Source: Candidatus Omnitrophota bacterium
GTDB lineage: Bacteria; Omnitrophota; Omnitrophia; Omnitrophales; Aquincolibacteriaceae
Length of the DNA stretch: 64,000 nucleotides
Assembly (NCBI GenBank): GCA_043821445.1
Contig: JBDRCT010000033.1
Coordinates: forward strand, 69,391-133,390
Reading direction: 5' to 3'
The position numbers were made by a program, and so were the translations under genes. How positions within the stretch are numbered: position 1 is the stretch's first letter; the number at the start of each line of letters is the position of its first letter. The notes under the pieces are model-generated. The model was given only the letters and a program-made list of their open reading frames with translations. It ran no database searches and was not told where the DNA came from. Below, piece after piece: positions 2,946 to 59,842 of the stretch.

Positions 2946-3961
2946 GCCTTTCGGATCGCTTCTTCAAGTTCTTCGGGAGTGACCGTCGCGGTGCCAAGTT
3001 TGCCGACCACAATACCGGCGGCAAGATTCGATATCTTCGCGGCTTCCTGCATTTTCGCGCCCGCCGCCAATGCAACCGCAAGTGTCGCGATCACCGTATC
3101 CCCGGCGCCGGAGACATCATAAACTTCGCGCGCAGCAGTCGGAACTATGGTTAGTTTTTTATTTTTTTCAAAAAGAGCCATGCCATCCTCGCCGAGTGTG
3201 ATCAGCACGGAATCAAGTTTCAGTTTTTTCATCAGGCCCCATCCCACCTCTTCGAGTTCCGGCGTTTTGTAACAGGACCCATGAGTGCGTTCATAACCCA
3301 TGTAGGCTTCACTACGGTTCGGGGTGATGCAAGTCACGCCCTGGTAATAGACGAAATGTTTTTCCTTGGGATCTACAAGCACGGGTTTTTTGAATTTCTT
3401 AGCAAGCCGAACAATTTCCTTTAAAAGAAAGGGTTGCATCACGCCTTTTCCGTAATCCTCAAGGATCACAACATCCATTCGGTGGATATGCTCGCGAACA
3501 AATTTTAGGATCTTTAAAAGATGCGCCTTGGCAACATCGTCTGTTTTTTCACGGTCAAAACGGACCACCTGTTGGGAATGCGCGATCACGCGGGTTTTAA
3601 GGGACGTCGGACGCGCTGGATCATAAATAATCCCACCCGTCTCAATCCCCTGCTTGCGCATCGCCCTAAGCAACATACGCCCATAAAAATCGCGGCCTAC
3701 CACTCCACAAGGGCAAACCTGACCTCGAAGAGACCGGATATTATTGGCTACGTTAAGCGATCCCCCCGGCATAAAAGATTCCCGCTCGACCTTGACCACC
3801 GGGACCGGCGCCTCGGGAGAAATACGCTTCACGTTCCCCCAGACAAATTGATCCAGAATGAAATCCCCGATCACGAGAATACGGACCTCCTGGAACCTTT
3901 CAAGGATCTCGAGAAAGCATCTTTTTTCCAAGTTACTCAGTGGCAAGGATGTGGTCTTCAT
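2942..3961 (-). CDS. hldE: D-glycero-beta-D-manno-heptose-7-phosphate kinase (HldE/RfaE domain I only, pfkB family)
   Basis: 339 aa. ILVIGDFILDQFVWGNVKRISPEAPVPVV, and a C-terminal DVSGAGDTV ribokinase signature. The adenylyltransferase domain II is not fused. Confidence 0.8.
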
Positions 3962-7001: not shown

Positions 7002-7091
7002 AAGGATCAGTTCCGGATAGTCCCAATACCCATCCATCGAAGCAAAGCTGAGATTGGGGCAATCCTTGTCGACCATTTTGGAAATAAAATC

Positions 7092-7352
7092 TTAGACAAG
7101 GATAGTCCTGTCCAGGCAAGCACCCATCCCGTCACAGAATATTTCTTTAACGAGTACGGCTTTCTTGCCCTGGCTTCTATTTTCGTTTTCTAGAAGATTA
7201 CCAGGGCTAGCCTCATGAACCTTTGCTCCTCCTGATGGAGAATGGGGCTTGTGTTCATCTTCCAGCACCAGAGCGCCTTCCGCGCATGCTTGGGTGCAAA
7301 GTCCGCATCCGTTGCATTTTTCCCGGTCGATCTCAATGATCTTACGTTTCAT
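7092..7352 (-). CDS. Small 4Fe-4S ferredoxin-like protein, interrupted in-frame by a repeat element
   Basis: [23 protein letters not shown] is a CxxCxxCxxxC cluster motif. The middle of the ORF (about 7158-7252) is coded by repeat copy R-A. The C-terminus has only CDGMGAC. Confidence 0.4.
7158..7252 (-). repeat. R-A: double-hairpin repeat element inside the ferredoxin-like ORF
   Basis: Minus strand: ACAAGCCCCATTCTCCATCAGGAGGAGCAAAGGTTCATGAGGCTAGCC + CCTGG-loop(GAAAACGAAAATAGAAG)-CCAGG + GCAAGAAAGCC. Confidence 0.6.
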
Positions 7353-7394
7353 GATAACCTCTTTGTCGCTAAAGGGGTCAGGCATCTTTTTTCT

Positions 7395-19255: not shown

Positions 19256-21355
19256 TCACGGCGCTTCGGATGAAGTTTCGGCGGCGTCGTATTTTTTCGG
19301 CAGCTCATTGACCACGTACGTGCACTTCGGATAATTCGAGCAACCGTAGAACGCCCGGCGGCCTTGGGCCCGGCGTTTCACCAATTCTCCGCCACAACCC
19401 GTCGCCGGGCAAAAGAACCCGGTCGGGAGAGAACGCGTGTACTTACATTCCGGGAATCCGGAGCAAGCCATGAATTTTCCAAACCGCCCGAACTTGATAA
19501 AAACCTGTTTGCCACACAGTTCACATTTGTGATCCGTGGGGATGGGGATTTGCTTGACACTTTTCATTTCTGTCTGTGCGCGCGTCAGGAATTCGCCGAA
19601 AGGCCCGTAAAAATCCTTCAGAACTTTGACCCAGTCCATTTTCCCTTCTTCGATCTCATCCAGCTCCTCTTCCATAAGCGCCGTGAATTCCACATCCAGG
19701 ATCGTCGGAAAATGCCGTACTAAAATATCCACGACCGTTTTGCCAAGTTCGGTAGGCATGAGCGCGCCGCCCTTACGCTCGGCATAAATACGCCCCAGGA
19801 TGGTTGATATCGTGGGCGCATAGGTGCTCGGGCGGCCGATGCCCTTTTCTTCGAGCAGTTTAATCAGGCTTGCATCATTGAACCGCGACGGCGGTTTCGT
19901 AAAGTGTTGTTCGCCCAGGAGTTCATGAAGCGTCAGTTTCTGTCCCGCTTTGAGGTCAGGAAGCTCCAGCGCCTCCGGGACTTCGTCTTCTTCGGCTTCC
20001 TTGGAATTCTCGGTTTCAACTTTGATTTCGCCGAACGCAGCGGTAAATCCCGGAAAGAGATTGCGTTTGCCGGTCGTACGGAATTTGTATCTTTCGCCGG
20101 CCAGGATCGAAATGACGGTGTGTTCATCGACCGCAGGCACCATTTGTGACGCCAGGAATTTCCTCCAGATGAGTTCATAGAGTTTCAACTCGTCGCTTTC
20201 GAGAAAATCTTTCATCGAATCCGGAATGCGAAAGGCCGAGGTCGGACGGATGGCTTCGTGAGCCTCCTGCGCACCCTTGCGGGATTTATATACAGGCGGT
20301 TTTTTAGGAAGATAATCTTTCCCGAATTTCTTTTGGATATAGCGCGCGGCTTCCCCTTGCGCGGAAGCGGCAACATTTACGGAATCTGTTCTCATGTAAG
20401 TGATAAGACCGACGCTGCCTTCGTCTCCGAGTTCCACGCCCTCATACAGCTTCTGTGCGATACGCATCGTGTTCGAGGCCGAGAACCCGAGCTGGCTGTA
20501 AGCTTCTTGCTGGAGTTTGCTTGTGGAATAAGGCGCCTGCGGGTTACGGCGCTTTTCGGTCTTTTCGATATTCGAGACCTGGAAAGGAAGCGGGTGGAGT
20601 TCTTGCTTGATCCGGTCGATCTCGGCCTGGGTCTTGAGTTTGGGCTTCGCTTGATCGATTTGAGTAAGACGGGAAAGAAAAATTTTGGACTGCTCGGGAC
20701 CTTCCGCAGCGGAAAGCTTTGCGTCCAATGTCCAGTATTCTTGCGGCACGAACTTCTGAATCTCGCGCTCGCGATCCACGATAAACCTGAGCGCCACAGA
20801 CTGTACGCGACCCGCGCTGAGCCCCCGGCCGACATTGCGCCAAAGGAGAGGACTCAATTGATATCCGACCACGCGGTCCAGAATGCGGCGCGCCTGCTGC
20901 GCGTTCACAAGATTCATGTCAATCTCGCGGGGATGGTCAAAAGCCTTTGACACGGCCTCTTTCGTGATCTCGTTGAATTCCACCCGAAGGATCTTCGGGC
21001 CGTGGCCTTCCTCTGAAAAAATATGGGCAAGATGCCAACTGATGGCCTCGCCTTCCCGGTCCGGATCGGGCGCGACATAGATGGTTTCTTTATCCTGTGC
21101 GTCCTTTTTAAGCTGTCTGACCGTTTTGAGGGCCCGCCGGATGATGATGTATTCCGGAGCGAAATCATGCTCGATATCGACAGCCATCCGGCTCTTCGGT
21201 AAGTCCCGCACATGGCCCATGGACGCTACAACATGGAAATCCTTGCCGAGGAACTTATTGATGGTTTTGGCCTTGGCCGGTGACTCCACAATCACCAGAT
21301 GCTTGGGTCCCTCCGCGGTCTTTGAAACTTTCACGCCTTTCTTCGCTTTTGCCAC
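19256..21355 (-). CDS. topA: DNA topoisomerase I
   Basis: 699 aa. LVIVESPAKAKTINKFLG Toprim start, the active-site region, and C-terminal Zn-ribbons (CELCGK..., CSNYPKC). Confidence 0.95.
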   Translation of the reverse strand: MAKAKKGVKVSKTAEGPKHLVIVESPAKAKTINKFLGKDFHVVASMGHVRDLPKSRMAVDIEHDFAPEYIIIRRALKTVRQLKKDAQDKETIYVAPDPDREGEAISWHLAHIFSEEGHGPKILRVEFNEITKEAVSKAFDHPREIDMNLVNAQQARRILDRVVGYQLSPLLWRNVGRGLSAGRVQSVALRFIVDREREIQKFVPQEYWTLDAKLSAAEGPEQSKIFLSRLTQIDQAKPKLKTQAEIDRIKQELHPLPFQVSNIEKTEKRRNPQAPYSTSKLQQEAYSQLGFSASNTMRIAQKLYEGVELGDEGSVGLITYMRTDSVNVAASAQGEAARYIQKKFGKDYLPKKPPVYKSRKGAQEAHEAIRPTSAFRIPDSMKDFLESDELKLYELIWRKFLASQMVPAVDEHTVISILAGERYKFRTTGKRNLFPGFTAAFGEIKVETENSKEAEEDEVPEALELPDLKAGQKLTLHELLGEQHFTKPPSRFNDASLIKLLEEKGIGRPSTYAPTISTILGRIYAERKGGALMPTELGKTVVDILVRHFPTILDVEFTALMEEELDEIEEGKMDWVKVLKDFYGPFGEFLTRAQTEMKSVKQIPIPTDHKCELCGKQVFIKFGRFGKFMACSGFPECKYTRSLPTGFFCPATGCGGELVKRRAQGRRAFYGCSNYPKCTYVVNELPKKYDAAETSSEAP

Positions 21356-29135: not shown

Positions 29136-30146
29136 TCATTTCCCCCGTTTGTTGAGAGCGTTAAGAAGCGCCCGGCGCATCACGCCCGCCGGCGCCTTTC
29201 GTCCCGTCCAAAGTTCCAAAGCCCGAGCGCCCTGATAAAGCAGCATCCCGAGCCCGTTGAGGGTCCGATGCCCTTTCTTTTTCGCCATCTTTAAAAAAGG
29301 TGTTACGGCCGGATTATAAATAAGATCCATAAAAAACTTCGGGCCGTAGCTTGCTTTTTTCGAGGCTCGCCCCCGCAGAGTTACTTGAACCCTTCCCGCT
29401 TGAGGGATCCAACTTTCCGGAACCACCTTCGGGTCTTGAGACCTCAGCCCGATCGGCGTCGCGTTGATAACAACATCGGCTTTTTGAAGAGCCTCCTTGA
29501 CCTCCGATGTTCCAGCCGCCACGGCATGGTAACCCACCTGTTTGAAAAGTTTCCGCATCTTCCTTGCGATTTTCCGGGCTTTTTGCGGAAAACAATCCGC
29601 AATCAGGATCTCCCGGATACCTGCCCGCGAAAGACCATAAACCACCGCACGTGCCGCGCCACCGGCCCCGAGGATCACGGCCTTTTTTCCGGACGGGCGA
29701 AACCCTCCTTCCTTCATGATCGCCCTGAGAAAACCTTCCATGTCCGTATTCGTACCTATCCACTGTCTTCCTTGTTTGAAAACAGTATTTACCGCGCCGA
29801 TAGCACGCGCTTCCGGCCGGATGCTGTCGAGATATTTCATCACCGTCTCTTTGAAGGGCACCGTGACATTAAAACCTGAAAGAGAAAGCTTGGAGGATCG
29901 GCGCATGAGCTTTTTGAAATCGACGGGAGTCGATTCTAAAACGATATAGTGGGCGTCGATCCCGAGCCTGCAAAACGCAGCTTCGTGCATGGCCGGAGAA
30001 AGAGTATGCGAAAGGGGGTACCCGAAGATCCCGTAAAGCTTAAAGGCCTTGTCCTGGCATCTGTTTTTTTCTGACTGAAGGTTGCCAGGACTAGTCCAAT
30101 TAACCTTCAAATTTTTTGATTGGGAATTGGGCTTGTCTTTTTTCAC
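29136..30146 (-). CDS. aroE: Shikimate dehydrogenase
   Basis: The core starts at KLYGIFGYPLSHTLSPAMHEAAF and includes GAGGAARAVVYGL. The ATG overlaps the leuA stop (ATGA). The roughly 33-aa N-terminal extension is coded by repeat R-C, so the true start is uncertain (possibly the TTG at codon 13). Confidence 0.8.
   Translation of the reverse strand: MKKDKPNSQSKNLKVNWTSPGNLQSEKNRCQDKAFKLYGIFGYPLSHTLSPAMHEAAFCRLGIDAHYIVLESTPVDFKKLMRRSSKLSLSGFNVTVPFKETVMKYLDSIRPEARAIGAVNTVFKQGRQWIGTNTDMEGFLRAIMKEGGFRPSGKKAVILGAGGAARAVVYGLSRAGIREILIADCFPQKARKIARKMRKLFKQVGYHAVAAGTSEVKEALQKADVVINATPIGLRSQDPKVVPESWIPQAGRVQVTLRGRASKKASYGPKFFMDLIYNPAVTPFLKMAKKKGHRTLNGLGMLLYQGARALELWTGRKAPAGVMRRALLNALNKRGK
30045..30137 (-). 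repeat. R-C: double-hairpin repeat element forming the 5' end of aroE
   Basis: Minus strand: ACAAGCCCAATTCCCAATCAAAAAATTTGAAGGTTAATTGGACTAGTCC + TGGCA-loop-TGCCAGGAC + AAGGCC. It is in the same frame as R-A, with peptide similarity DKPNSQSKNLKVNWTSPGNL vs [20 protein letters not shown]. Confidence 0.6.
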
Positions 30147-32736: not shown

Positions 32737-33300
32737 TTAGCGCTTTGTGAAATTATTTCTTTTTTGTTTTTTCGCCGTCTTACAAGCACCGGTCTTCCCG
32801 CCGCATTTCAAGGGAGCCTTGAGTTCGCCCCGGCGAGCCATGGCGATCTGTCCCGTCCGAACGACCTCCTTAAGATCAAAGGGCCTCAAAAGCTCGAGCA
32901 TGGCGTCGATCTTACCTTCGCTCCCTGTGACCTCGATTGTCAGGGATTCCGGACTTACGTCCACGATCTTCGCGCGGAACGTATTGACGACATGCATGAT
33001 GTCGTTACGATTGGACGCATTCGCGCCGATCTTGATCAGCACAAGCTCCCGCGTGATCATGTCCTGCGTCGTAAGGTCTTCCACCCGGATCACATCCACC
33101 AATTTATTCAGCTGCTTCATGATCTGCTCGACCACGCGGTCATCCCCGTTCGCGACCACGGTCATGCGCGACACTTCCGGATCCTGAGTCTCCCCCACTG
33201 CAAGACTGTCGATATTGAATCCGCGCGCCGAAAAAAGTCCTGCTACACGGGCTAAAACACCGGCGTGGTTTTCTACCAATACTGAGACTGTATGTTGCAT
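32737..33300 (-). CDS. ilvN: Acetolactate synthase small (regulatory) subunit, with a basic C-terminal tail
   Basis: 187 aa. HTVSVLVENHAGVLARVAGLFSARGFNIDSLAV is the ACT domain. The extra tail is RRGELKAPLKCGGKTGACKTAKKQKRNNFTKR. Confidence 0.85.
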   Translation of the reverse strand: MQHTVSVLVENHAGVLARVAGLFSARGFNIDSLAVGETQDPEVSRMTVVANGDDRVVEQIMKQLNKLVDVIRVEDLTTQDMITRELVLIKIGANASNRNDIMHVVNTFRAKIVDVSPESLTIEVTGSEGKIDAMLELLRPFDLKEVVRTGQIAMARRGELKAPLKCGGKTGACKTAKKQKRNNFTKR

Positions 33301-33334: not shown

Positions 33335-33417
33335 CTAGTACCGTTCTCTATTTATTTTTACGGGTTAACGGTACTAGCACTACAAACCCGTAAAAATTAA
33401 CAGTAATGCAGTGCTAG
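33335..33417. repeat. X1: intergenic double-hairpin element between ilvB and ilvN
   Basis: H1 is CTAGTACCGTT-loop(ctctatttatttttacgggtt)-AACGGTACTAG. H2 is CTAGCACT-loop(acaaacccgtaaaaattaacagtaatgc)-AGTGCTAG. Loop 1 (TTTTTACGGGTT) is complementary to loop 2 (AACCCGTAAAAA). Confidence 0.7.
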
Positions 33418-33454: not shown

Positions 33455-35140
33455 TTATGCCATATCCATGATCTGGTCCAGGGCATTCCCGGCCGGAACC
33501 ATCGGATAGACATTTGCTTCTCCGGAAACAAGGCATTGCACGACCACGGGGCCTTTATGAGCCAGCGCTTTTTTGATCGCCGGAATTACTTCTTTCTCTT
33601 GCGAGACTCGAAGCGCAAGGATCCCGTAAGCGCCCACTAATTTCACAAAATCAGGATTGGTAGGACCGATCACAGAACCCGAATAGCGCCGTTTGTAGAA
33701 AAGTTCCTGCCATTGGCGCACCATGCCATAATAACCATTATCCAGAATGAATGTCTTGACCGGCACTTTGTTATAAGCCGCGGTTGCGAGCTCCGTCATG
33801 GTCATCTGGAACGACCCGTCGCCTTCGATACAAACCACTGTTTCTTTGGGCTTTCCAAGCTGTGCGCCGATCGCGGCGGGAAAACCATACCCCATGGTTC
33901 CAAGCCCTCCGGACGTGAGCATGGTGCGTGGCCGGTTGAATTGATACCATTGCGCCGTCCACATTTGGTGCTGTCCCACACCGGTCACCACAATCGCCCG
34001 GTGCTTCGTCAGCTCTCCGATCTTTTTAATTACGTACGCAGGATGGATCTTCTGCCCCGTGTTCTCATATTTCATCGGATGCTTTTGCTTCCAAGCCGCG
34101 ATCCGAGCGAGCCATTCTTTCATATCCGAACGCTTGTCCGGAATAAGCGCGCTCAATTTTCCGATCGCCTGTTTTACGTCGCTCACCAAAGGCACATGCA
34201 CCCGAACGGTCTTTGAGATCGAAGATGGATCAATATCGATGTGGATGATCCTGGCATGCGGCGCGAACTTCGCCACGTTACCGGTCACGCGATCGTCAAA
34301 GCGCGCGCCGACCCCGATCAAAACATCGGAATTCTGCACCGCGTAATTCGCAAAATGAGTGCCATGCATCCCGAGCATCCTCAGCGAAGATTCATGTGTT
34401 TCCGGAAAGATCCCAAGCCCCAGGATCGTCGTCGTAATGGGGATCCCCGTCTTTTCCACGAACTTGCGGATCTCTTTTTCGGCTCCCGAAATGATCGCCC
34501 CGCCCCCCACATACAACACGGGCCGTTTGCTTCCGCGGATCAGTTCGGCAGCCTTCAGCATCTGTTCTTCCACCCCGGGACATTCCACGTCCGGTTGATA
34601 GCTCCGGATAAAAACATCTTTCGGCCATATAAACTCCGTTTTAGTCCGACTGATATCCACCGGAAAATCGATTAACACCGGACCGGGTTTTCCGGTCGTA
34701 GCGATATAGAATGCTTCACGCACGATCCTCGCAATGTCCCGAACATCCTTGATCAGAAAATTATGTTTCGTGATAGGACGCGTGATCCCGATGATGTCCA
34801 CTTCCTGGAACGCATCGCTCCCGATCGCATTCGTGGTCACCTGACCGGTGATGCAGACCAGAGGCACGGAATCCATATAAGCGGTTGCCAAACCGGTGAC
34901 AGTGTTCGTGGCTGCGGGTCCCGAAGTCACTAAACAAACGCCAGGACGTCCCGTCGCGCGAGCGTACCCATCCGCCATATGCGTCGCGCCCTGCTCATGC
35001 TTCGTCAAGATCAGTTTGATCTTGGAATCATAGAGCACATCGTAAGTAGGCAGAATGACCCCGCCTGGAAGGCCAAAAATGTGCCTCACATTTTCTTTTT
35101 CAAGACACTTGATCAAAATTTGAGCGCCTGTAAGTTTCAT
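33455..35140 (-). CDS. ilvB: Acetolactate synthase large subunit
   Basis: Thiamin-diphosphate enzyme motifs (GLPGG, GDGSFQM). The likely start is MKLTGAQIL. Confidence 0.9.
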   Translation of the reverse strand: MKLTGAQILIKCLEKENVRHIFGLPGGVILPTYDVLYDSKIKLILTKHEQGATHMADGYARATGRPGVCLVTSGPAATNTVTGLATAYMDSVPLVCITGQVTTNAIGSDAFQEVDIIGITRPITKHNFLIKDVRDIARIVREAFYIATTGKPGPVLIDFPVDISRTKTEFIWPKDVFIRSYQPDVECPGVEEQMLKAAELIRGSKRPVLYVGGGAIISGAEKEIRKFVEKTGIPITTTILGLGIFPETHESSLRMLGMHGTHFANYAVQNSDVLIGVGARFDDRVTGNVAKFAPHARIIHIDIDPSSISKTVRVHVPLVSDVKQAIGKLSALIPDKRSDMKEWLARIAAWKQKHPMKYENTGQKIHPAYVIKKIGELTKHRAIVVTGVGQHQMWTAQWYQFNRPRTMLTSGGLGTMGYGFPAAIGAQLGKPKETVVCIEGDGSFQMTMTELATAAYNKVPVKTFILDNGYYGMVRQWQELFYKRRYSGSVIGPTNPDFVKLVGAYGILALRVSQEKEVIPAIKKALAHKGPVVVQCLVSGEANVYPMVPAGNALDQIMDMA

Positions 35141-35200
35141 GATCTGTTTTCCGTTATGAGCCCTAGCCATCACTTTATTTGATCAGAATCGGAGAGAAGG

Positions 35201-38885: not shown

Positions 38886-38961
38886 CGCGCAACGCATAAA
38901 GCGCAACGTACAACGTGTTTTGACCACTTTTACGTTGAGCGTTGATCGTTGAGCGTTGAGC
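38886..38961. repeat. Heptad-repeat hairpin (CGTTGAG units) straddling the rsmI stop codon
   Basis: The right arm is cgttgag cgttgat cgttgag cgttgag (4 x 7 nt). The left arm is complementary (gcgcaacg...caacgtg). The loop contains the rsmI stop (38930-38932). The right arm encodes the RsmI C-terminal tail SSTLNDQRST. Confidence 0.65.
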
Positions 38962-40695: not shown

Positions 40696-40771
40696 GTGCA
40701 ACGCGCAAAGGTCAACGCGCAACGAAAAACTCAGAAACATCACGTTGTGCGTTGCGCGTTGTGCGTTGTGC
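40696..40771. repeat. Heptad-repeat hairpin (CGTTGYG units) straddling the rsmA stop codon
   Basis: The right arm is cgttgtg cgttgcg cgttgtg cgttgtg. The left arm is caacgcg caaaggt caacgcg caacg. The rsmA stop (40740-40742) lies in the loop. The right arm encodes the tail DSTTHNAQRTT. Confidence 0.65.
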
Positions 40772-43804: not shown

Positions 43805-43826
43805 GGAGGGGTATTATACAACAATT

Positions 43827-43906
43827 CAGACTTGAGACTACAGACTTCAGACCATAAAAAACCGCTCGTTTTGGTCTATCGTCTGTTGTCTGCGGTCTGT
43901 GGTCTG
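43827..43906. repeat. GTCTG heptad-repeat hairpin spanning the mfd stop codon, 5' of surA
   Basis: cagacttgagactacagacttcagacc -loop- ggtctat cgtctgt tgtctgc ggtctgt ggtctg (5 x 7 nt). The second arm encodes the Mfd tail QTTDRRQQTIDQ. Confidence 0.6.
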
Positions 43907-45787
43907 TTTTTGCTCTGCCACGGCTTTTTTGAGCATACGGCAATAAAGATCAAAACCCACAGCCTGAATGAACCCGCTTTGTTCATGTCCAAGCAGATTC
44001 CCGGCGCCGCGGATCTCAAGATCTTCCATCGCGATCTTGAAACCCGACCCGAGTTGGGTGAATTTTTCGATGGCGTGAAGCCTTTTTTGAGCGTCCTGTG
44101 TCATGACCCAATTTTTCGGGATCAGAAAATAAGCATAGGCTTGCCGCTTTTCTTTGAAACGCCCTACACGCCCTCGCAGTTGATAAAGATCCGCAAGCCC
44201 GAAGCAATCGGCCCGGTCCACAAGAAGCGTATTGACGTTCGGAATATCGATCCCGGATTCCACGATACAGGTCGAAATAAGGCAATCGATCTCGCCCCTC
44301 AGGAATTTTTTCATGACGGTTTCAAGCCTGTCGACCGGCATCTGCCCGTGCATGACCCCGAACCGGACGCCGGGCAGAATTTCTTGCATCCGCTTATAGA
44401 CCCGTTCGATCGATTGCACACGGTTGTGCACAAAATAGACCTGCCCTTTGCGCGCAAGTTCCCGCTCGATCGCCTGCTTGATAATGGTTTCATGATATTC
44501 CATGACAAAGGTCTCGATCGGTATCCGGTTTTGAGGCGGCGTATCGATGACCGACATATTGCGCACGCCGAGGAGCGCCATATGGAGCGTTCTCGGGATG
44601 GGCGTGGCCGTAAGCGTCAGGACGTCCACTTGCGTACGCATTTGTTTCAGCTTTTCCTTGTGCCGCACCCCGAAGCGCTGTTCCTCGTCGATCATGACGA
44701 GCCCGAGATCTTTGAACCGGATATCCTTGGAAAGCAGGCGGTGGGTGCCGATCACAACGTCCGTTGCGCCTTCCTGGAGGGACCTGACGATCACCTTTTG
44801 TTCTTTCGGGGATTGAAATCGGGAGAGAAGCTCGACTGTGACCGGAAAATTTTTCGCGCGCTCCTTTAGTAAAACATAATGCTGTTCGGCAAGGATCGTG
44901 GTCGGCACCAAAAACGCCACTTGTTTGCCTCCCATGACCGCTTTGAATGCCGCACGCATCGCGACCTCGGTCTTCCCGTAGCCCACGTCCCCGCAAAGCA
45001 GGCGGTCCATCGGTCCCGTGGATTCCATATCCCGTTTTACTTCTTCGATCGCGCGCTTCTGTCCGGGCGTTTCTTCAAAAGGAAATTCTTTTTCGAATTC
45101 TTTCTGCCATGGCGTGTCCTTCGGGAAGGCCAGCCCTTGCGAAAGACTGCGCTTGGCCTGGATCTCAAGAAGGTCTTTGGCGACCTTGTGGAGCGCCGTC
45201 CGTGTCCGGTGCTTGATCCGCTCCCATTCCTGAGTGTTGAGCCGGGTCAGTTTCGGCCCGACGCCGGAGCCGCCGATGTAACGCTCCACGGGTTCTTCAA
45301 TGGAAAGGTAAAGGATCTCACGCTCGGCGTATTCGATCGCCATACAGCGGGTGCGGACCCCCTGCATTTGAATGACCTTGGTGCCGAGAAAACGACCGAT
45401 GCCGTACTTGAGGTGCACCACGAGGTCCCCGCGCTCAAGGTCTTTGGTGCCGGCCACGGGCTCGAAGGTCTCGAGCCGCTCCTCCATGCGCCGGAGTTTT
45501 TTCCGGAACATGTCGGAGACCTGAATGAGGAACACCTCTTCAAAGGTCGCCGTGCTTTCGCCCGTGGCGAGCGAGAAATCGCGGATCTGGACGGGCGTAT
45601 CGCCTTGAAATTGAATGCGGACAGGAAGCCGGTAGGTCACGGGATAGATGTCCACCATCCCGCCGCGTACGGCGAATTCCCCCGGCAGAGCGACATATTC
45701 CCGCTTCTGGTATTGGAGCCCCGTAAGAAGCTCCTCAAGCTGCCCGATCCCGATCTCCGCGTTGATCCTAAGCCGTCGGATTTCCAC
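43847..45787 (-). CDS. mfd: Compact Mfd-like transcription-repair coupling factor / RNAP-displacing translocase
   Basis: 646 aa with a GTG start. It runs D1b-like (GEFAVRGGMVDIYP...VRIQF), then the RNAP-interaction domain (GDLVVHLKYGIGRFLG), then the SF2 translocase (GDVGYGKTEVAMRAAF...DEEQRFGV...TATPIPRTL...LRGRVGR). No room remains upstream for the UvrB-homology D1a/D2 domains. Confidence 0.8.
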   Translation of the reverse strand: MEIRRLRINAEIGIGQLEELLTGLQYQKREYVALPGEFAVRGGMVDIYPVTYRLPVRIQFQGDTPVQIRDFSLATGESTATFEEVFLIQVSDMFRKKLRRMEERLETFEPVAGTKDLERGDLVVHLKYGIGRFLGTKVIQMQGVRTRCMAIEYAEREILYLSIEEPVERYIGGSGVGPKLTRLNTQEWERIKHRTRTALHKVAKDLLEIQAKRSLSQGLAFPKDTPWQKEFEKEFPFEETPGQKRAIEEVKRDMESTGPMDRLLCGDVGYGKTEVAMRAAFKAVMGGKQVAFLVPTTILAEQHYVLLKERAKNFPVTVELLSRFQSPKEQKVIVRSLQEGATDVVIGTHRLLSKDIRFKDLGLVMIDEEQRFGVRHKEKLKQMRTQVDVLTLTATPIPRTLHMALLGVRNMSVIDTPPQNRIPIETFVMEYHETIIKQAIERELARKGQVYFVHNRVQSIERVYKRMQEILPGVRFGVMHGQMPVDRLETVMKKFLRGEIDCLISTCIVESGIDIPNVNTLLVDRADCFGLADLYQLRGRVGRFKEKRQAYAYFLIPKNWVMTQDAQKRLHAIEKFTQLGSGFKIAMEDLEIRGAGNLLGHEQSGFIQAVGFDLYCRMLKKAVAEQKQTTDRRQQTIDQNERFFMV

Positions 45788-45989: not shown

Positions 45990-46042
45990 CTGGATTCAAA
46001 TATAAAAATAATTGAAATCCAGGACAGCACTGATCTTCAATG
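45990..46042 (-). terminator. Putative aspC terminator
   Basis: A 10-bp stem (gtcctggatt / aatccaggac) with a 19-nt AT-rich loop, followed on the minus strand by gccucuAUUUUUaag. The stem type is shared with repeat R-C. Confidence 0.4.
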
Positions 46043-46098
46043 AATTTTTATAGAGGATCAGGCGATGCACTTGACGGAGGGTTGCTTTCTCTTATTTT

Positions 46099-50815: not shown

Positions 50816-50890
50816 CGTCTAGTCCCAATTCTTATCAATTTCAGAGAATCTGAAATTGGGGCAACCCTTGTCAACCATTTAAGAAAAGAA

Positions 50891-51658
50891 TCACAGGCAA
50901 GGGTAGAGAGCCTCGTCGCCTGTTAAATTCATAAGTCCACTTTCCGTAAAAACAACCGTATCTTCGTAATGACTGGCGTTCTTACGATCTTTTGTGACTA
51001 CCGTCCAACCGTCCTCAAGCGTCTCCACTGCATAATGACCTTCCGTCACCATCGGCTCGATCGCAATCACCAATCCCGGTTCGATCTTGGCCCCCCGCCC
51101 GGCTTTCCCGTAATTCGGAACCTGCGGATCCTCGTGAAGCTGCCGTCCGATCCCATGTCCGGCGTAATCACGGACCAGTTGAAATCCTCGCTCTTCAACG
51201 TATCGCTGGATCGTCTCTGAAATATCCCCGATCCGCCAACCCGATTGATACGCCGCCATCGCTGCGTCAAAGGAGCCCTTCGCGGCACGGATCAACGTCT
51301 GTTTTCTCGGATCGGCCACGCCCACCTGCCAGGTCCTTGCCGCATCCGCATAAAACCCGTTCCATTTAACTCCAATATCAAAACTAACAATATCGCCATC
51401 TTTCAAACGACGCGCACCTGGGATTCCGTGCACCACGGCCTCATTGATGGAAATACAAGCTGCCTTCGGGAACCCGCGATAACCCTTGAACGCCGGTTCC
51501 CCGCCATTTTCAACGATCACCTTTTCTGCCGCGCAATCCAAGGCTTCCGTTGTCACGCCTTCAACGATCATGGGTTTCACGACCGAGAATATTTTTTTCA
51601 GGATCTTCCCGGCTTCCAAAATCAGTTGAATTTCACGTTTTGATTTCAACTCGATCAT
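50891..51658 (-). CDS. map: Methionine aminopeptidase type I
   Basis: 255 aa. HGIPG...DIGV...GHGIGR metal-ligand motifs. Confidence 0.9.
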   Translation of the reverse strand: MIELKSKREIQLILEAGKILKKIFSVVKPMIVEGVTTEALDCAAEKVIVENGGEPAFKGYRGFPKAACISINEAVVHGIPGARRLKDGDIVSFDIGVKWNGFYADAARTWQVGVADPRKQTLIRAAKGSFDAAMAAYQSGWRIGDISETIQRYVEERGFQLVRDYAGHGIGRQLHEDPQVPNYGKAGRGAKIEPGLVIAIEPMVTEGHYAVETLEDGWTVVTKDRKNASHYEDTVVFTESGLMNLTGDEALYPCL

Positions 51659-51664
51659 GCAAAC

Positions 51665-52318
51665 CTAGTGGATCTTTTCAAAGAGCTTTTCTAGGACCTT
51701 CTGGACCGACGGGGCATCGCCCCCTGCCGGAACATCATGGAGCAGCCCCGTTTTGCGATAGAACTCCACGAGCGGCTTCGTCGACTCGTGATAAACCTTA
51801 AGCCTGTGACGGATCGTCTCGGGCTCATCATCCTTGCGGGTCGTTAACTTCTCCCCGTCTACATCGCAAATCCCGTCCTTTTTCGGAGGCATATTGCGAA
51901 CATGATAGATCTTTCCGCACTTGGGGCAACCCCGCCGGCCCGAAAGCCGGTCGACAAGCACTTCTTCCGGCGCCATAAAATTGATCGCAGCCGTCAATGC
52001 GATCTTTTCCTTGGAGAAAAACTTTTCGAGCGCCTCGGCCTGAACAATCGTCCGGGGATACCCATCCAGAATAAAACCCTTGGAACTTTTCAATGCCAAG
52101 ATCTCATCGAATATCATGTCGTTCACAAGTTCGTCAGAAACAAGTTCGCCGCGTTCTATGACGGCCTTTGCCTGCAACCCGAGCGATGTGCCTTCCTTAA
52201 CATTCTTCCTTAAAATATCTCCTGCGGCCAACTGCAGCACACCATATTTTTCACAAATCACCTTGGCATGGGTGCCTTTTCCGGCTCCCGGAGGCCCCAA
52301 GAAGATCAGATTCATCAA
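51665..52318 (-). CDS. adk: Adenylate kinase
   Basis: 217 aa. LIFLGPPGAGKGT, and a Zn lid (CPKCGKIYH...CDVDGE). Confidence 0.9.
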   Translation of the reverse strand: MMNLIFLGPPGAGKGTHAKVICEKYGVLQLAAGDILRKNVKEGTSLGLQAKAVIERGELVSDELVNDMIFDEILALKSSKGFILDGYPRTIVQAEALEKFFSKEKIALTAAINFMAPEEVLVDRLSGRRGCPKCGKIYHVRNMPPKKDGICDVDGEKLTTRKDDEPETIRHRLKVYHESTKPLVEFYRKTGLLHDVPAGGDAPSVQKVLEKLFEKIH

Positions 52319-53664
52319 CGGCGCCCCTTCAAACGGCCCCGTTTAATGAACCCATCATAATGTCGCATCACCAGCTGAGACTCGATGGATTTCATCACAT
52401 CCAGCACCACGCCGACAATGATAAGAAGCCCGGTGCCGCCGAAAAAACTCGCGATCAGGAACGGGATATTCAACACATGCGGTGACGAGACGATCTTTGG
52501 AAAAAGTGCGATCAAAGCCAGGATCAAGGCTCCCGCCGTCGCGATCCTCGTCATCAGATAATCTAGATATTCCGCCGTGTTTTTTCCCGGTCGGATCCCC
52601 GGCACGAAACCGCCATATTTCTGGAGATTGTCGCTTACTTCGATCGGGTTAAATGTGATGGCCGTATAAAAAAAAGTAAAAAATATGATCAAAATGGCAT
52701 CCAGGGCCATATAGCCCCCGCTTCCGTAACTGATCGCCTGGGCAATCCTTGTGAAAGCTCCGGCATTCGGAAAAAAACCCGCGATCGTAGCCGGAAATAG
52801 AATGACCGACTGAGCAAAAATGATCGGGATCACACCCGCCTGGTTCACTTTGAGCGGCAAATACGTGCTCTGCCCGCCGTAAGTCCTGTGCCCCCGGATC
52901 TGTTTTGCATACTGGACAGGGATCTTTCGCTGCCCCTGAATGATCAAGATCAGAAAGATCACCGCGCCCACGAAAAGCCCGCACATAACCACAAATTTCC
53001 ACCATGCAAGTTGCTGACGCGACGGATCGAGCGGCGAAAGCAGGACCCATGTCTGGCGCAATGCTTCCGGCAGGGAGTCGATGATGCCCGCGGTAATGAT
53101 GACCGACATACCGTTGCCAATACCATAATTATCGATCTGCTCGCCGAGCCACATGATGAATGCTGTGCCTGTAGTCATGGTCAGCATACACATCAAACGG
53201 AAACCCCAACCCGGATCCGGCACGATCACCGATCCCCCGAAAGCTGCCGGGTTTTCAAGCCAAAGAGCGATAAAGAATGTCTGCAAGATACTCAGGACGA
53301 TCGTCCCGTAGCGTGTGTATTGGATGATCTTCTTGCGGCCTTCCTCGCCTTCCTTCGCGAGTTTCTCGAGAGCCGGTATCACCACGGTCAAAAGCTGTAA
53401 AATGATCGATGCCGAAATATAAGGCATGATCCCCAACGCGAAGATCGTCGCTTTCTGGAGTGCGCCTCCGGTGAACATCCCCATAAAACCCAGGAGTGAT
53501 CCGCCGGACATATGCTGCTGGAAAAATCGCGCGAGCGCAACGCCGTCGATCCCGGGTGTCGGCACATAAGTCCCTATTCGATACACGGCGATGATGCCGA
53601 GCGTAAATAGGATCTTTTTTCGCAAATCGGGGACTTTTAAGATATTTCCGAACGCTTGTAGCAC
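52315..53664 (-). CDS. secY: Preprotein translocase subunit SecY
   Basis: 449 aa. A 10-TM SecY pattern. Confidence 0.95.
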   Translation of the reverse strand: MLQAFGNILKVPDLRKKILFTLGIIAVYRIGTYVPTPGIDGVALARFFQQHMSGGSLLGFMGMFTGGALQKATIFALGIMPYISASIILQLLTVVIPALEKLAKEGEEGRKKIIQYTRYGTIVLSILQTFFIALWLENPAAFGGSVIVPDPGWGFRLMCMLTMTTGTAFIMWLGEQIDNYGIGNGMSVIITAGIIDSLPEALRQTWVLLSPLDPSRQQLAWWKFVVMCGLFVGAVIFLILIIQGQRKIPVQYAKQIRGHRTYGGQSTYLPLKVNQAGVIPIIFAQSVILFPATIAGFFPNAGAFTRIAQAISYGSGGYMALDAILIIFFTFFYTAITFNPIEVSDNLQKYGGFVPGIRPGKNTAEYLDYLMTRIATAGALILALIALFPKIVSSPHVLNIPFLIASFFGGTGLLIIVGVVLDVMKSIESQLVMRHYDGFIKRGRLKGRR

Positions 53665-53679
53665 CAGAACTCCGTTCTT

Positions 53680-53753
53680 GCACTGTGTTCTATTTAATTT
53701 TAAAGGTTCACAGTGCTAGTACCGTGCACCCTTAAAAATTAATCTGACACGGT
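53680..53753. repeat. X2: intergenic double-hairpin element between rplO and secY
   Basis: H1 is GCACTGTG-loop(ttctatttaattttaaaggtt)-CACAGTGC. H2 is ACCGTG-loop(cacccttaaaaattaatctga)-CACGGT. The loops are homologous to those of X1 and X3. It also shares the 10-mer CTAGTACCGT with X1. Confidence 0.7.
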
Positions 53754-53762
53754 GCTTGTTAT

Positions 53763-54194
53763 TTATTTTCCGAGCAGAATGGCTTGACCGCCCTTAGACT
53801 CGATCTTGATCTTCGCGGAACCGCTGAAAAGATGGGCCTTCACGGTGACGGCTTTCTTAAGCTCCCCGGATCCGAGGATCTTCAATCCGTCACGTAGTTC
53901 TTTAATGACATTTTTAGCGAGCAATAATTCCGGCGTGATCTCTTTATCTTCAAGCTTTGCCAACGTCTGAAGATTCACAATCGCATAAACCTTTTTGAAC
54001 GCACTGCGATTAAAACCCCTCTTCGGAAGACGGCGATAAAGAGGATTCTGTCCGCCTTCAAACCCCGGATTCAAAGTAAAGCCCGAACGGGCCCTCTGTC
54101 CTTTGTGCCCCTTGGTCGAGGTTTTCCCATGCCCGGAACCGATCCCGCATCCTAAACGTTTTTTACGCTTTTTATAAGGAGTCTTGTGTCTCAT
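53763..54194 (-). CDS. rplO: 50S ribosomal protein L15
   Basis: 143 aa. [23 protein letters not shown]. Confidence 0.9.
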
Positions 54195-58520: not shown

Positions 58521-59289
58521 CGCTCTTATTCTCCTGTGTCCCGCTATGCTGGGACGCTTCCGAAGCAGGCTTGGCCGCTTCCACAACTTCTGTTTTGGGG
58601 ATCTCTTCTTCAGCGACCTTAAATTTTTTCTCGAGCTCGAGCTTCTGAGCTTCCTGCTCTTTTTTCACGAGCACATCCCCCTTGTAGATCCAGGTCTTGC
58701 AACCAATGGTTCCATAGGTGGTAAAGGCTTCGGCAAAACCGTAATCGATATCCGCGCGGAAAGTGCTGAGCGGAACTTTTCCTTCATGATATTTTTCTTC
58801 GCGAGCGATCTCCGCGCCGCCGAGACGGCCCTTGCACTGCACTTTGATTCCAAGCGCACCCTTCTGCATCGCAAGCTGGATGGATTTTTTCATTGCGCGC
58901 CGGAACCCGATGCGCTTTTCAAGCTGCAGCACGATATTCTCGGCCACAAGTTGCGCGTCGATCTGAGGCATCTTCACTTCCTTGATATCCAGGAACACCT
59001 CGTTCTTCGTCAGTGCCGCAAGGTCCTCTTTGATCTTATCGATCTCTTGACCGCGCCGCCCGATAATAACACCGGGCTTGGCCGCGAAAATACGAATACG
59101 GCACCGATTCGACGCCCGGTCGATCTCGATCGAAGAAATACCGGCGATCGCCAGCTTTTTCTTCAAATAGGCACGGATCTTGAGGTCCTCCATGAGAATA
59201 GTCCCGGCGTCACGCTTAGCGAACCAACGCGCTTTCCAGGGCTTGATGTACCCAAGCCTCAAACCGTAAGGATGAACTTTCTGACCCAA
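58504..59289 (-). CDS. rpsC: 30S ribosomal protein S3
   Basis: 261 aa. (M)[12 protein letters not shown] from a TTG start, with a GGGAGG SD 8 nt upstream. Confidence 0.95.
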
Positions 59290-59318
59290 AATAACCTCCC
59301 TTATGCCTTCGTTCTTTT

Positions 59319-59393
59319 ATACTGTTCCCAATTAAATTTTAAGGGTTAACAGTATTATGCCGCATACCCTTAAATTTAAATGTGATGCGGCAT
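59319..59393. repeat. X3: intergenic double-hairpin element between rplV and rpsC
   Basis: H1 is ATACTGTT-loop(cccaattaaattttaagggtt)-AACAGTAT. H2 is ATGCCGCAT-loop(acccttaaatttaaatgtg)-ATGCGGCAT. H2 overlaps the rplV stop by 1 nt. Confidence 0.7.
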
Positions 59394-59842
59394 TAAGCCG
59401 CCGCGGCGGTTTTTTTCTTGTTCTTCGCTTTCGCGTCTTCCGGCGATCTTCCGCCCCAAAACTTGATTCCTTCGCGGACTTCCACGGTCAGGTGGGTGGT
59501 CCGTTTGAGAATTTTATCCGCACGCCCCATAGAACGGGTCAGAAACCGTTTGAATACCGGCCCCCCATCCGCACGCACGTTCGATACATAAAGACGGTTT
59601 TCATTCAATCCCAGATTCTTGGCGTTCGAGATGGCGCTTTTCAAAGTCTTGACCGCCATCTTAGCGCCCTTCTTTTTAAGAAGCATCAGAATCCCGACCG
59701 CTTCCTGGGCCGGTTGCCTCCGGATTGTATCGATCACAAGACGCATCTTTCGCGGCGCGATCCTTAAGTGCTTCGTAAGCGCTCTGACGACGCGCGGCGA
59801 CGGCGCTACATCTACTTTTGATTTTTTTTCGTCCTTGGCCAT
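59393..59842 (-). CDS. rplV: 50S ribosomal protein L22
   Basis: 149 aa. Confidence 0.9.
   Translation of the reverse strand: MAKDEKKSKVDVAPSPRVVRALTKHLRIAPRKMRLVIDTIRRQPAQEAVGILMLLKKKGAKMAVKTLKSAISNAKNLGLNENRLYVSNVRADGGPVFKRFLTRSMGRADKILKRTTHLTVEVREGIKFWGGRSPEDAKAKNKKKTAAAA

Follow-up and report, generated by a model that had tools for sequence, protein, structure and literature searches.

In a 64,000-nucleotide stretch of a Candidatus Omnitrophota genome (hereafter the window), three tight gene junctions, ilvB/ilvN, rplO/secY and rplV/rpsC, each contain a short double hairpin, designated X1, X2 and X3, respectively. The original prediction regarded these elements as a family of three copies with a functional role as RNA or DNA sites, rather than as mobile DNA. 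This raises the question of whether the hairpins are selected at the junctions where they lie, or whether they arrived there as elements that spread on their own account. As set out below, we conclude with a probability of roughly 85% that X1, X2 and X3 are copies in an undescribed superfamily of small, non-autonomous, palindromic mobile DNA elements of Candidatus Omnitrophota. The elements are selfish repeats that recently jumped into tight gene junctions, and they combine features of MITEs, REPINs and Rickettsia palindromic elements (RPEs). A full-text literature search returned no description of such repeats in Omnitrophota.

Conserved loops and interchangeable stems

The sequence confirmed the positions of X1, X2 and X3 and the identity of the three junctions, where all genes are located on the minus strand. 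Each element consists of two mutually inverted hairpin modules, the second being a near reverse complement of the first. A module has a stem of 7–11 bp and a loop of 19–25 nt, and the two modules are joined by a centre of 3–4 nt. With flanks the elements measure 81–88 nt, of which the body accounts for 74–80 nt. When brought into a common orientation, the X copies read 4-nt flank, stem 1, loop A, stem 1′, centre, stem 2, loop A′, stem 2′ and 4-nt flank. Their stem cores are yACTGyg (stem 1) and TACCGTk (stem 2), the centre is CTAG or TTA, and the loops read tTCTATTTaATTTTAAGGGTT (loop A) and AACCCTTAAAAtTtAA... (loop A′).

The hairpin-1 stems had been correctly quoted for the three copies (CTAGTACCGTT/AACGGTACTAG, GCACTGTG/CACAGTGC and ATACTGTT/AACAGTAT), but the view that they differ completely could not be maintained. 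The copies share the two cores, and X1 is X2 in the opposite orientation, so that the hairpin-1 stem of X1 equals the hairpin-2 stem of X2, while X3 differs from both by paired substitutions. The claim that loop 1 is the reverse complement of loop 2 was exact for X1 (TTTTACGGGTT versus AACCCGTAAAA). Loop 1 of X3 reads CCCAATTAAATTTT instead of TCTATTT. A proposed switch between two hairpins and one long hairpin found support in silico: upon folding as DNA, the minimum of X1 and X2 was a single long hairpin, and that of X3 was a pair of hairpins.

Thirteen X copies from about nine genomes were aligned, and 90.9% of the cells were paired; in controls with a slid alignment, pairing dropped to 32–49%. 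Changes on both sides were observed in 12 of the 27 pairs, a result matched by none of 500 shuffles, and the predicted stem covariation is thus significant. The helix formed between the two loops was 87–92% paired, and one of its pairs covaries, being A-U in six copies and C-G in three. G·T pairs in the stems outnumbered A·C pairs (15 versus 7), an excess too small to name the folding strand.

As the original prediction had suggested, further copies were sought with a covariance model, which was built from eight copies (three from the window and five from other genomes). X1, X2 and X3 scored 89–95 bits (E about 1e-17 to 1e-18), far above chance. Rather than three copies, this one model identified eight full-length elements in the window (three X, three R and two D6; Table 1), five of them in addition to X1, X2 and X3, and more in related contigs. 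A generic scan for two adjacent hairpins, by comparison, was too permissive, yielding 89 clusters versus 51 in shuffled sequence. The genes of the window are almost all on the minus strand, and its GC skew is negative all along.

Table 1. Double-hairpin elements of the 64-kb window, with their sites, flanks and covariance-model scores
Element	Position	Strand	Site	Flank / centre / flank	Model match
X1 (X-type)	33335–33417	− (canonical orientation)	spacer between ilvB (33455–35173, −) and ilvN (32737–33300, −)	CTAG / CTAG / CTAG (layout CTAG-H-CTAG-H-CTAG)	89.5 bits, E 2e-17
X2 (X-type)	53677–53758	+	spacer between rplO (53763–54194, −) and secY (52315–53664, −)	CTTG / CTAG / CTTG	94.1 bits
X3 (X-type)	59316–59396	+	between rplV (59393–59842, −) and rpsC (TTG start near 59283, −); right flank contains the rplV stop codon	TTTA / TTA / TTAA	95 bits
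R-type	7164–7251	+	in-frame (28 codons) in the 4Fe-4S protein gene	flanks CTTG...CTTG	
R-type (R17250)	17250–17337	+	in-frame in waaA/kdtA (ORF 16784–18238, −)	CTTG / CAAG / CTTG	
R-type (R30048)	30048–30135	+	in-frame directly after the GTG start of aroE (ORF 29136–30146, −)	CAAG / CTAG / CAAG	
D6-type	7018–7105	−	truncation point of the 4Fe-4S gene	flanks TAG...TAG	
D6-type	50820–50906	−	between map and infA; takes the place of the last map codons		
Candidate ninth double hairpin (divergent, membership uncertain)	45992–46066		mfd/aminotransferase spacer		weak, E 3

The family comprises at least four stem types, X, R, D6 and S. The stems of R and D6 (CCCCAAC, TCCTGGC, CCTAATT and TCCTTGTC) are unrelated to those of X. 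The S type, which was seen in a related contig, has one stem and both loops in common with R and a different second stem. The loops are nevertheless recognisably alike across types (X, TCTATTTAATTTTAA...GGTT; R, CTCTATTTTATTTTCATGAACGGTC; D6, TAAGATTTTATTTCCAAAATGGTC). The pattern of conserved loops with interchangeable stems, first noted for three copies, is therefore stronger still at the superfamily level, and both the strand symmetry and the existence of a genuine family were borne out. Integron attC sites were considered as relatives and rejected, as they have a conserved stem base and a variable loop, the opposite of the present elements. The candidate ninth double hairpin in Table 1, with stems TCCTGGATT and CTGATC and with TTTTTATAGAG at the end of its second loop, may be an older family member or a terminator.

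Consistent with the expectation that no known Rfam family would match, an Rfam search gave 0 matches at gathering score, and its E-value mode gave chance miRNA-like matches only. Across the 64-kb window every Rfam family, ribosomal-protein leaders included, fell short of its gathering score. Scans of genomes and metagenomes placed further copies exclusively in Omnitrophota or unclassified MAGs among the contigs searched. In the genome contigs, where a loose pattern was used, six of 117 loci were true relatives (L013, L014, L043, L049, L061 and L089), and a specific pattern gave two loci in metagenomes (L118 and L119). Homologues of SecY, IlvN and WaaA assign the window to Candidatus Omnitrophota, and its WaaA is 100% identical to a protein from an Omnitrophota MAG. 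No element was found in two scans of viral sequences, nor did a plasmid BLAST give an element match. Two of the new loci hold compound arrangements. At L043 (90–258) an X-type element carries a nested D6-type insertion precisely at its centre, which shows that the centre, a CTAG-like site, is itself a target. At L119 (2716–3007) three elements (D6, D6 and X) follow each other head to tail with spacers of 13–16 nt, forming a BIME-like cluster.

Empty sites, in-frame copies and decay

Closely related genomes carry several of the same junctions without an element. Both rplO/secY and rplV/rpsC were empty in L120, L121 and L122, in which SecY is 97%, 91% and 88% identical, respectively, and the covariance model found no copy over the 64 kb compared in these three. 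The gaps in L120 measure 16 nt (rplO-secY) and 26 nt (rplV-rpsC), and the X2 insertion point there reads CTG. The rplV/rpsC site reads CGTTCT-TTAA-GCC when empty, with a single TTAA in L120, L121 and L122, and CGTTCT-TTTA-[X3]-TTAA-GCC when filled. In L124 (IlvN 93%), ilvB and ilvN are separated by 22 nt without an element, and AroE (296 aa) lacks the N-terminal insert. Reciprocally, aroE of L124 ends in an R copy of its own at the 3′ side, and a decayed X copy separates dprA from an RDD gene in that genome. The window is empty at both of these sites, with a single CTAG at dprA/RDD. The cleanest pair was provided by L126, which reads GAACA-CAAG-AAGGC where the window (site 7164–7251) reads GAACA-CAAG-[80 nt]-CAAG-AAAGC. 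The D6 copy at map/infA, which is common to the window and L120 and absent from L121 and L122, is an older insertion.

These empty sites belong to relatives, not to ancestors; two cases are off by one base (CAG versus CAAG), and the repeat is 3 or 4 nt long. As in MITEs, direct repeats of 3–4 nt flank the element and one copy is present at the empty site, whether this represents a duplicated target or a sequence borne by the element. A 2-nt TA duplication, as made by IS630, was rejected because a repeat of 4 nt agrees better with the empty sites, and an origin of the stems from the target was rejected, the stem sequences being absent at empty sites. We also discarded the ilvB/ilvN spacer of L123 as an empty site for X1, as it consists of a different 79-nt sequence and is not clean. 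This spacer (3760–3838) contains heptamers, in inverted order, similar to short 7-nt tandem arrays (CGTTGAG, CGTTGTG, TTCAGAC and TGGTCTG) in intergenic spacers of the window (38933–38961, 40743–40771, 43825–43852 and 43872–43907). The arrays look like a second, unrelated kind of spacer repeat. In the ribosomal-protein operon of L122, many spacers are stretched to 70–200 nt and contain hairpins of another kind; other repeats seem to play the same part there.

The element types differ in where they are tolerated. R copies add 84 nt (an 80-nt body and a 4-nt repeat), which keeps the reading frame. Frames are open in the R, D6 and S types, which have a net length of 84 or 81 nt and persist in-frame in proteins, as RPEs do. 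The X type has stop codons in all six frames, and for this reason it is found only between genes, where X copies leave the upstream stop codon and the downstream ribosome-binding site intact. R17250 is read in a different frame from the other two R copies of the window. Its host protein, WaaA, is an insertion hotspot in Omnitrophota, with in-frame inserts of 27–28 aa at three separate sites in different lineages, among them a tandem insert pair (P0298) and partly deleted remnants (P0243 and P0286). The window protein has 484 aa, compared with 455–456 aa in most Omnitrophota, which lack the 28-aa insert, and it has about 31 extra residues relative to PDB 2xci.

In the 4Fe-4S gene (window 7018–7385), the R insert lies between the two cluster motifs, and the ORF ends at the D6 copy, at a point equivalent to about residue 52 in a homologue with a gene call of 253 aa (of which 245 aa are on the locus). 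The truncation probably reflects a deletion associated with the element, or else a pseudogene. A DUF3108 gene follows directly. At map (window 50820–50926), the D6 element supplies the last five codons and the stop, giving LYPCL* instead of S*. An R-type element was also seen in L125 (13864–13956), within a family-9 glycosyltransferase (heptosyltransferase) gene encoding 387 aa, compared with 360 aa for the window homologue, and this copy is probably another in-frame insertion. It is the harmless insertions alone that survive, a filter with which the stop-codon pattern per frame agrees, and fixed copies then decay neutrally.

Orthologous copies indeed showed decay. The window and L125 (WaaA 86%) have the waaA copy in common, with differences at four element positions, each change being one-sided and resulting in a mismatch or a wobble. 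The map/infA copy in L120 likewise showed one-sided changes, and its stems have decayed. From these one-sided changes it follows that the structure is not maintained where it is inserted. It must be in the spreading lineages that covariation between copies arises. Selection on the structure thus seems to act on the ability to spread, and not on a role at the place of insertion. Orthologous conservation with compensatory change, as expected of a curated cis-regulatory RNA, was not what we found.

The idea of a host-functional structured RNA, in which a cis-acting processing site, attenuator, mRNA stabiliser or protein-binding motif is selected at each operon junction, has to be judged against these observations. 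It would account for the covarying stems and conserved loops, and for sites in highly expressed operons at which stop codon and RBS are kept. REP-like elements stabilise upstream mRNA and, by analogy, could serve as a precedent. However, the junctions are empty in genomes as close as those listed above, X1 is inverted relative to X2 and X3 with respect to transcription, sister copies reside within ORFs, orthologous copies lose pairs without compensation, and the Rfam search was without a match. We therefore consider a structured RNA of this kind very improbable. Taken with the nested and tandem copies, the same observations overturned the claim that the hairpins are functional RNA or DNA sites rather than mobile elements. 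Some copies may nonetheless have an added host role, for example in mRNA stabilisation or processing.

Pairing between flanks and centre

The flanking repeats of 3–4 nt have the form YNNR (CTTG, CTAG, TTAA, CTAA and others). The hairpin feet read CTAG, CTTG, CTAA, TTAG, TTAA or CAAG, and each hairpin abuts a 3–4 nt YNNR motif in the manner of the subterminal hairpin and tetranucleotide of HUH-type ends. The flanks also relate to the centre. Apart from the copies in Table 1, flank, centre and flank read CTTG / CAAG / CTTG in L119c (as in R17250), CTAA / TTG / CTAA in L061 and L089, and TTAG / CTA / TTAG in L049. By a hand count from the sequences, the flank base that adjoins the stem is complementary to the centre in 23 of 26 copies (7 with A-T and 16 with G-C). 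Since a random target duplication would not covary with internal sequence, three explanations are left. The flank could in effect be inherited with the element, through site-specific or HUH-type insertion. The centre could instead guide the choice of target, as in IS608, in which an internal guide pairs with the target. Lastly, template-switching at replication could correct the quasi-palindrome afterwards. The complementarity of flanks and centre hints at target choice encoded by the element. The sequence fits a 4-bp duplication as well as a left target combined with the element's own right tetranucleotide, with the flank-centre covariation leaning towards the latter.

The hairpins are probably the substrate of an enzyme acting in trans. 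Such an enzyme, encoded elsewhere, would read the shape and the loop bases of the folded hairpins, and would direct insertion to a short target matching the flank of the element. Because the flanks are complementary to the centre, we favour a structure-specific single-strand mechanism, either HUH-type (as for IS200/IS605, RAYT and IS91) or by a site-specific recombinase, although this preference is tentative and falls somewhat short of an even chance. A classic DDE transposase that makes a 4-bp duplication is a possibility to be reckoned with, without being probable, and some other mechanism is unlikely. No transposase or autonomous parent was present among the window ORFs between 1 and 24 kb, and no orphan half-elements occurred in the loci compared. 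A candidate enzyme was not found either, the sole recombinase in the window being the product of an XerC/D-like gene (18367–19308), which has conserved synteny with topA and waaA.

An ordinary DDE-type MITE is a further reading to be weighed. The elements would then be IS deletion derivatives moved by cut-and-paste, their hairpins would be by-products of long inverted ends, and template-switch correction would have produced both the covariation and the match of flank and centre. IS5-like elements use a YTAR target and make a 4-bp duplication. Most flanks here fit YTAR (CTAG, CTAA, TTAG and TTAA), and the 4-nt direct repeats are single at empty sites. As a mechanism, a 4-bp duplication made by a DDE enzyme is the most economical, and a DDE transposase with a 4-bp YTAR-like target is the simplest alternative. 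The left half of the element is, moreover, an inverted copy of the right half, like the terminal inverted repeats of MITEs, and the long hairpin is the minimum fold for X1 and X2. A transposase that reads the ends, however, would be expected to leave the reverse of what is seen, as the types X, R, D6 and S have internal loops in common but completely different end sequences. Furthermore, CTTG, CAAG, CAGG and CCAG are outside YTAR, and CTTG is common to all three R copies of the window. Flank and centre covary over independent insertions, as illustrated by R30048 (CAAG / CTAG / CAAG) and its near-identical cousin in L124 (CAGG / CCAG / CAGG), and orthologous copies showed no correction of the palindrome. 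On balance, a DDE-type MITE of the ordinary sort appears doubtful.

Inverted doublets of a hairpin unit that can fold as two hairpins or as one long hairpin are also typical of REPs and REPINs, which are spread by a single-copy, domesticated RAYT (Y1 HUH) transposase. The present elements further resemble them in their high density and BIME-like tandem clusters, in a conserved structure with variable stem sequence, and in the tetranucleotide at each hairpin foot. Against this stand the absence of GTAG (the feet being CTAG, CTTG and similar), loops of 19–25 nt that are far larger than in REPs, flanks that act like target duplications, and copies within genes (waaA, aroE, the Fer4 gene and map) instead of an extragenic-only distribution. 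We therefore regard a REP/REPIN-type origin as unlikely. The preferred reading is that of mobile palindromic elements of an undescribed superfamily. In a further step, the centre might act as a guide that pairs with the target or cleavage tetranucleotide, with folded single strands being moved by an enzyme that reads loops and hairpin shape, not ends; this specific version is a conjecture with the odds clearly against it.

Relation to known repeats and implications

Viewed side by side with the REP/REPIN-RAYT systems of Proteobacteria, the elements share inverted palindromic pairs, two-hairpin or one-hairpin folding, high copy number, clustering, a foot tetranucleotide and a non-autonomous nature. 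They differ in the lack of GTAG, in combining variable stems with large, conserved loops (in REPs it is the stem that is conserved), in direct repeats at the flanks, of which the empty site has one copy, in copies within ORFs and in the host phylum. With the bacterial MITEs (Correia/CREE, ERIC, BOX/RUP and QMITE) they have in common that they are small (<300 bp), non-coding and multi-copy, with inverted halves, short flanking repeats, insertion polymorphism, nesting and positions within operons. Unlike in these MITEs, however, the ends vary between types while the loops are conserved, the flanks are complementary to the centre, and no parent IS is known.

A precedent is the IS91 family, whose members have subterminal palindromes and insert without duplication next to CTTG or GTTC, a tetranucleotide that may also form the end of the element; in IS801 and IS1294 the same tetranucleotide at the target and at the element's own terIS end creates a pseudo-duplication, and mini-elements of about 170 bp suffice for IS91 transposition (PMC13181058). 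The Omnitrophota elements resemble such HUH ends (IS200/IS605, PATEs and IS91) in their subterminal hairpins and in a tetranucleotide target with T at position 2 (CTTG, GTTC). HUH ends, on the other hand, are asymmetric, and the active strand carries the two hairpins in a single sense, whereas the modules described here are mutual reverse complements. The element is also half the size of the known mini-IS91, and no HUH gene was found.

Rickettsia palindromic elements are palindromic repeats that occur in-frame in protein genes (PMC10969869). By description, not by sequence, the Omnitrophota elements are like RPEs in adding an in-frame peptide to unrelated housekeeping proteins (here WaaA, AroE, ferredoxin and heptosyltransferase) and in having several families per genome. 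This likeness holds for R, D6 and S, but not for X with its stop codons. RPEs are also longer (about 150 nt, versus about 80 nt or 27–28 aa here) and belong to another host phylum.

Together, these findings describe a very compact mobile repeat from a poorly known, uncultured phylum, polymorphic even at 97% SecY identity. Its insertions have hit the core ribosomal-protein operon and, in-frame, enzymes of LPS and aromatic amino-acid synthesis. For annotation, the repeat accounts for unusually long spacers, ORF extensions and inserts of 28 aa in proteins of Omnitrophota, and its insertion polymorphisms could be used as strain markers. For research on mobile DNA, conserved loops, together with stems that can be exchanged and flanks complementary to the centre, give a testable lead to structure-guided insertion. 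We class the elements as a new family within a known kind of selfish repeat, and only the pairing of flank and centre could lift them beyond it. If the centre did act as a guide, the choice of insertion site would lie with a symmetric mini-element of 80 nt, which could also re-programme it.
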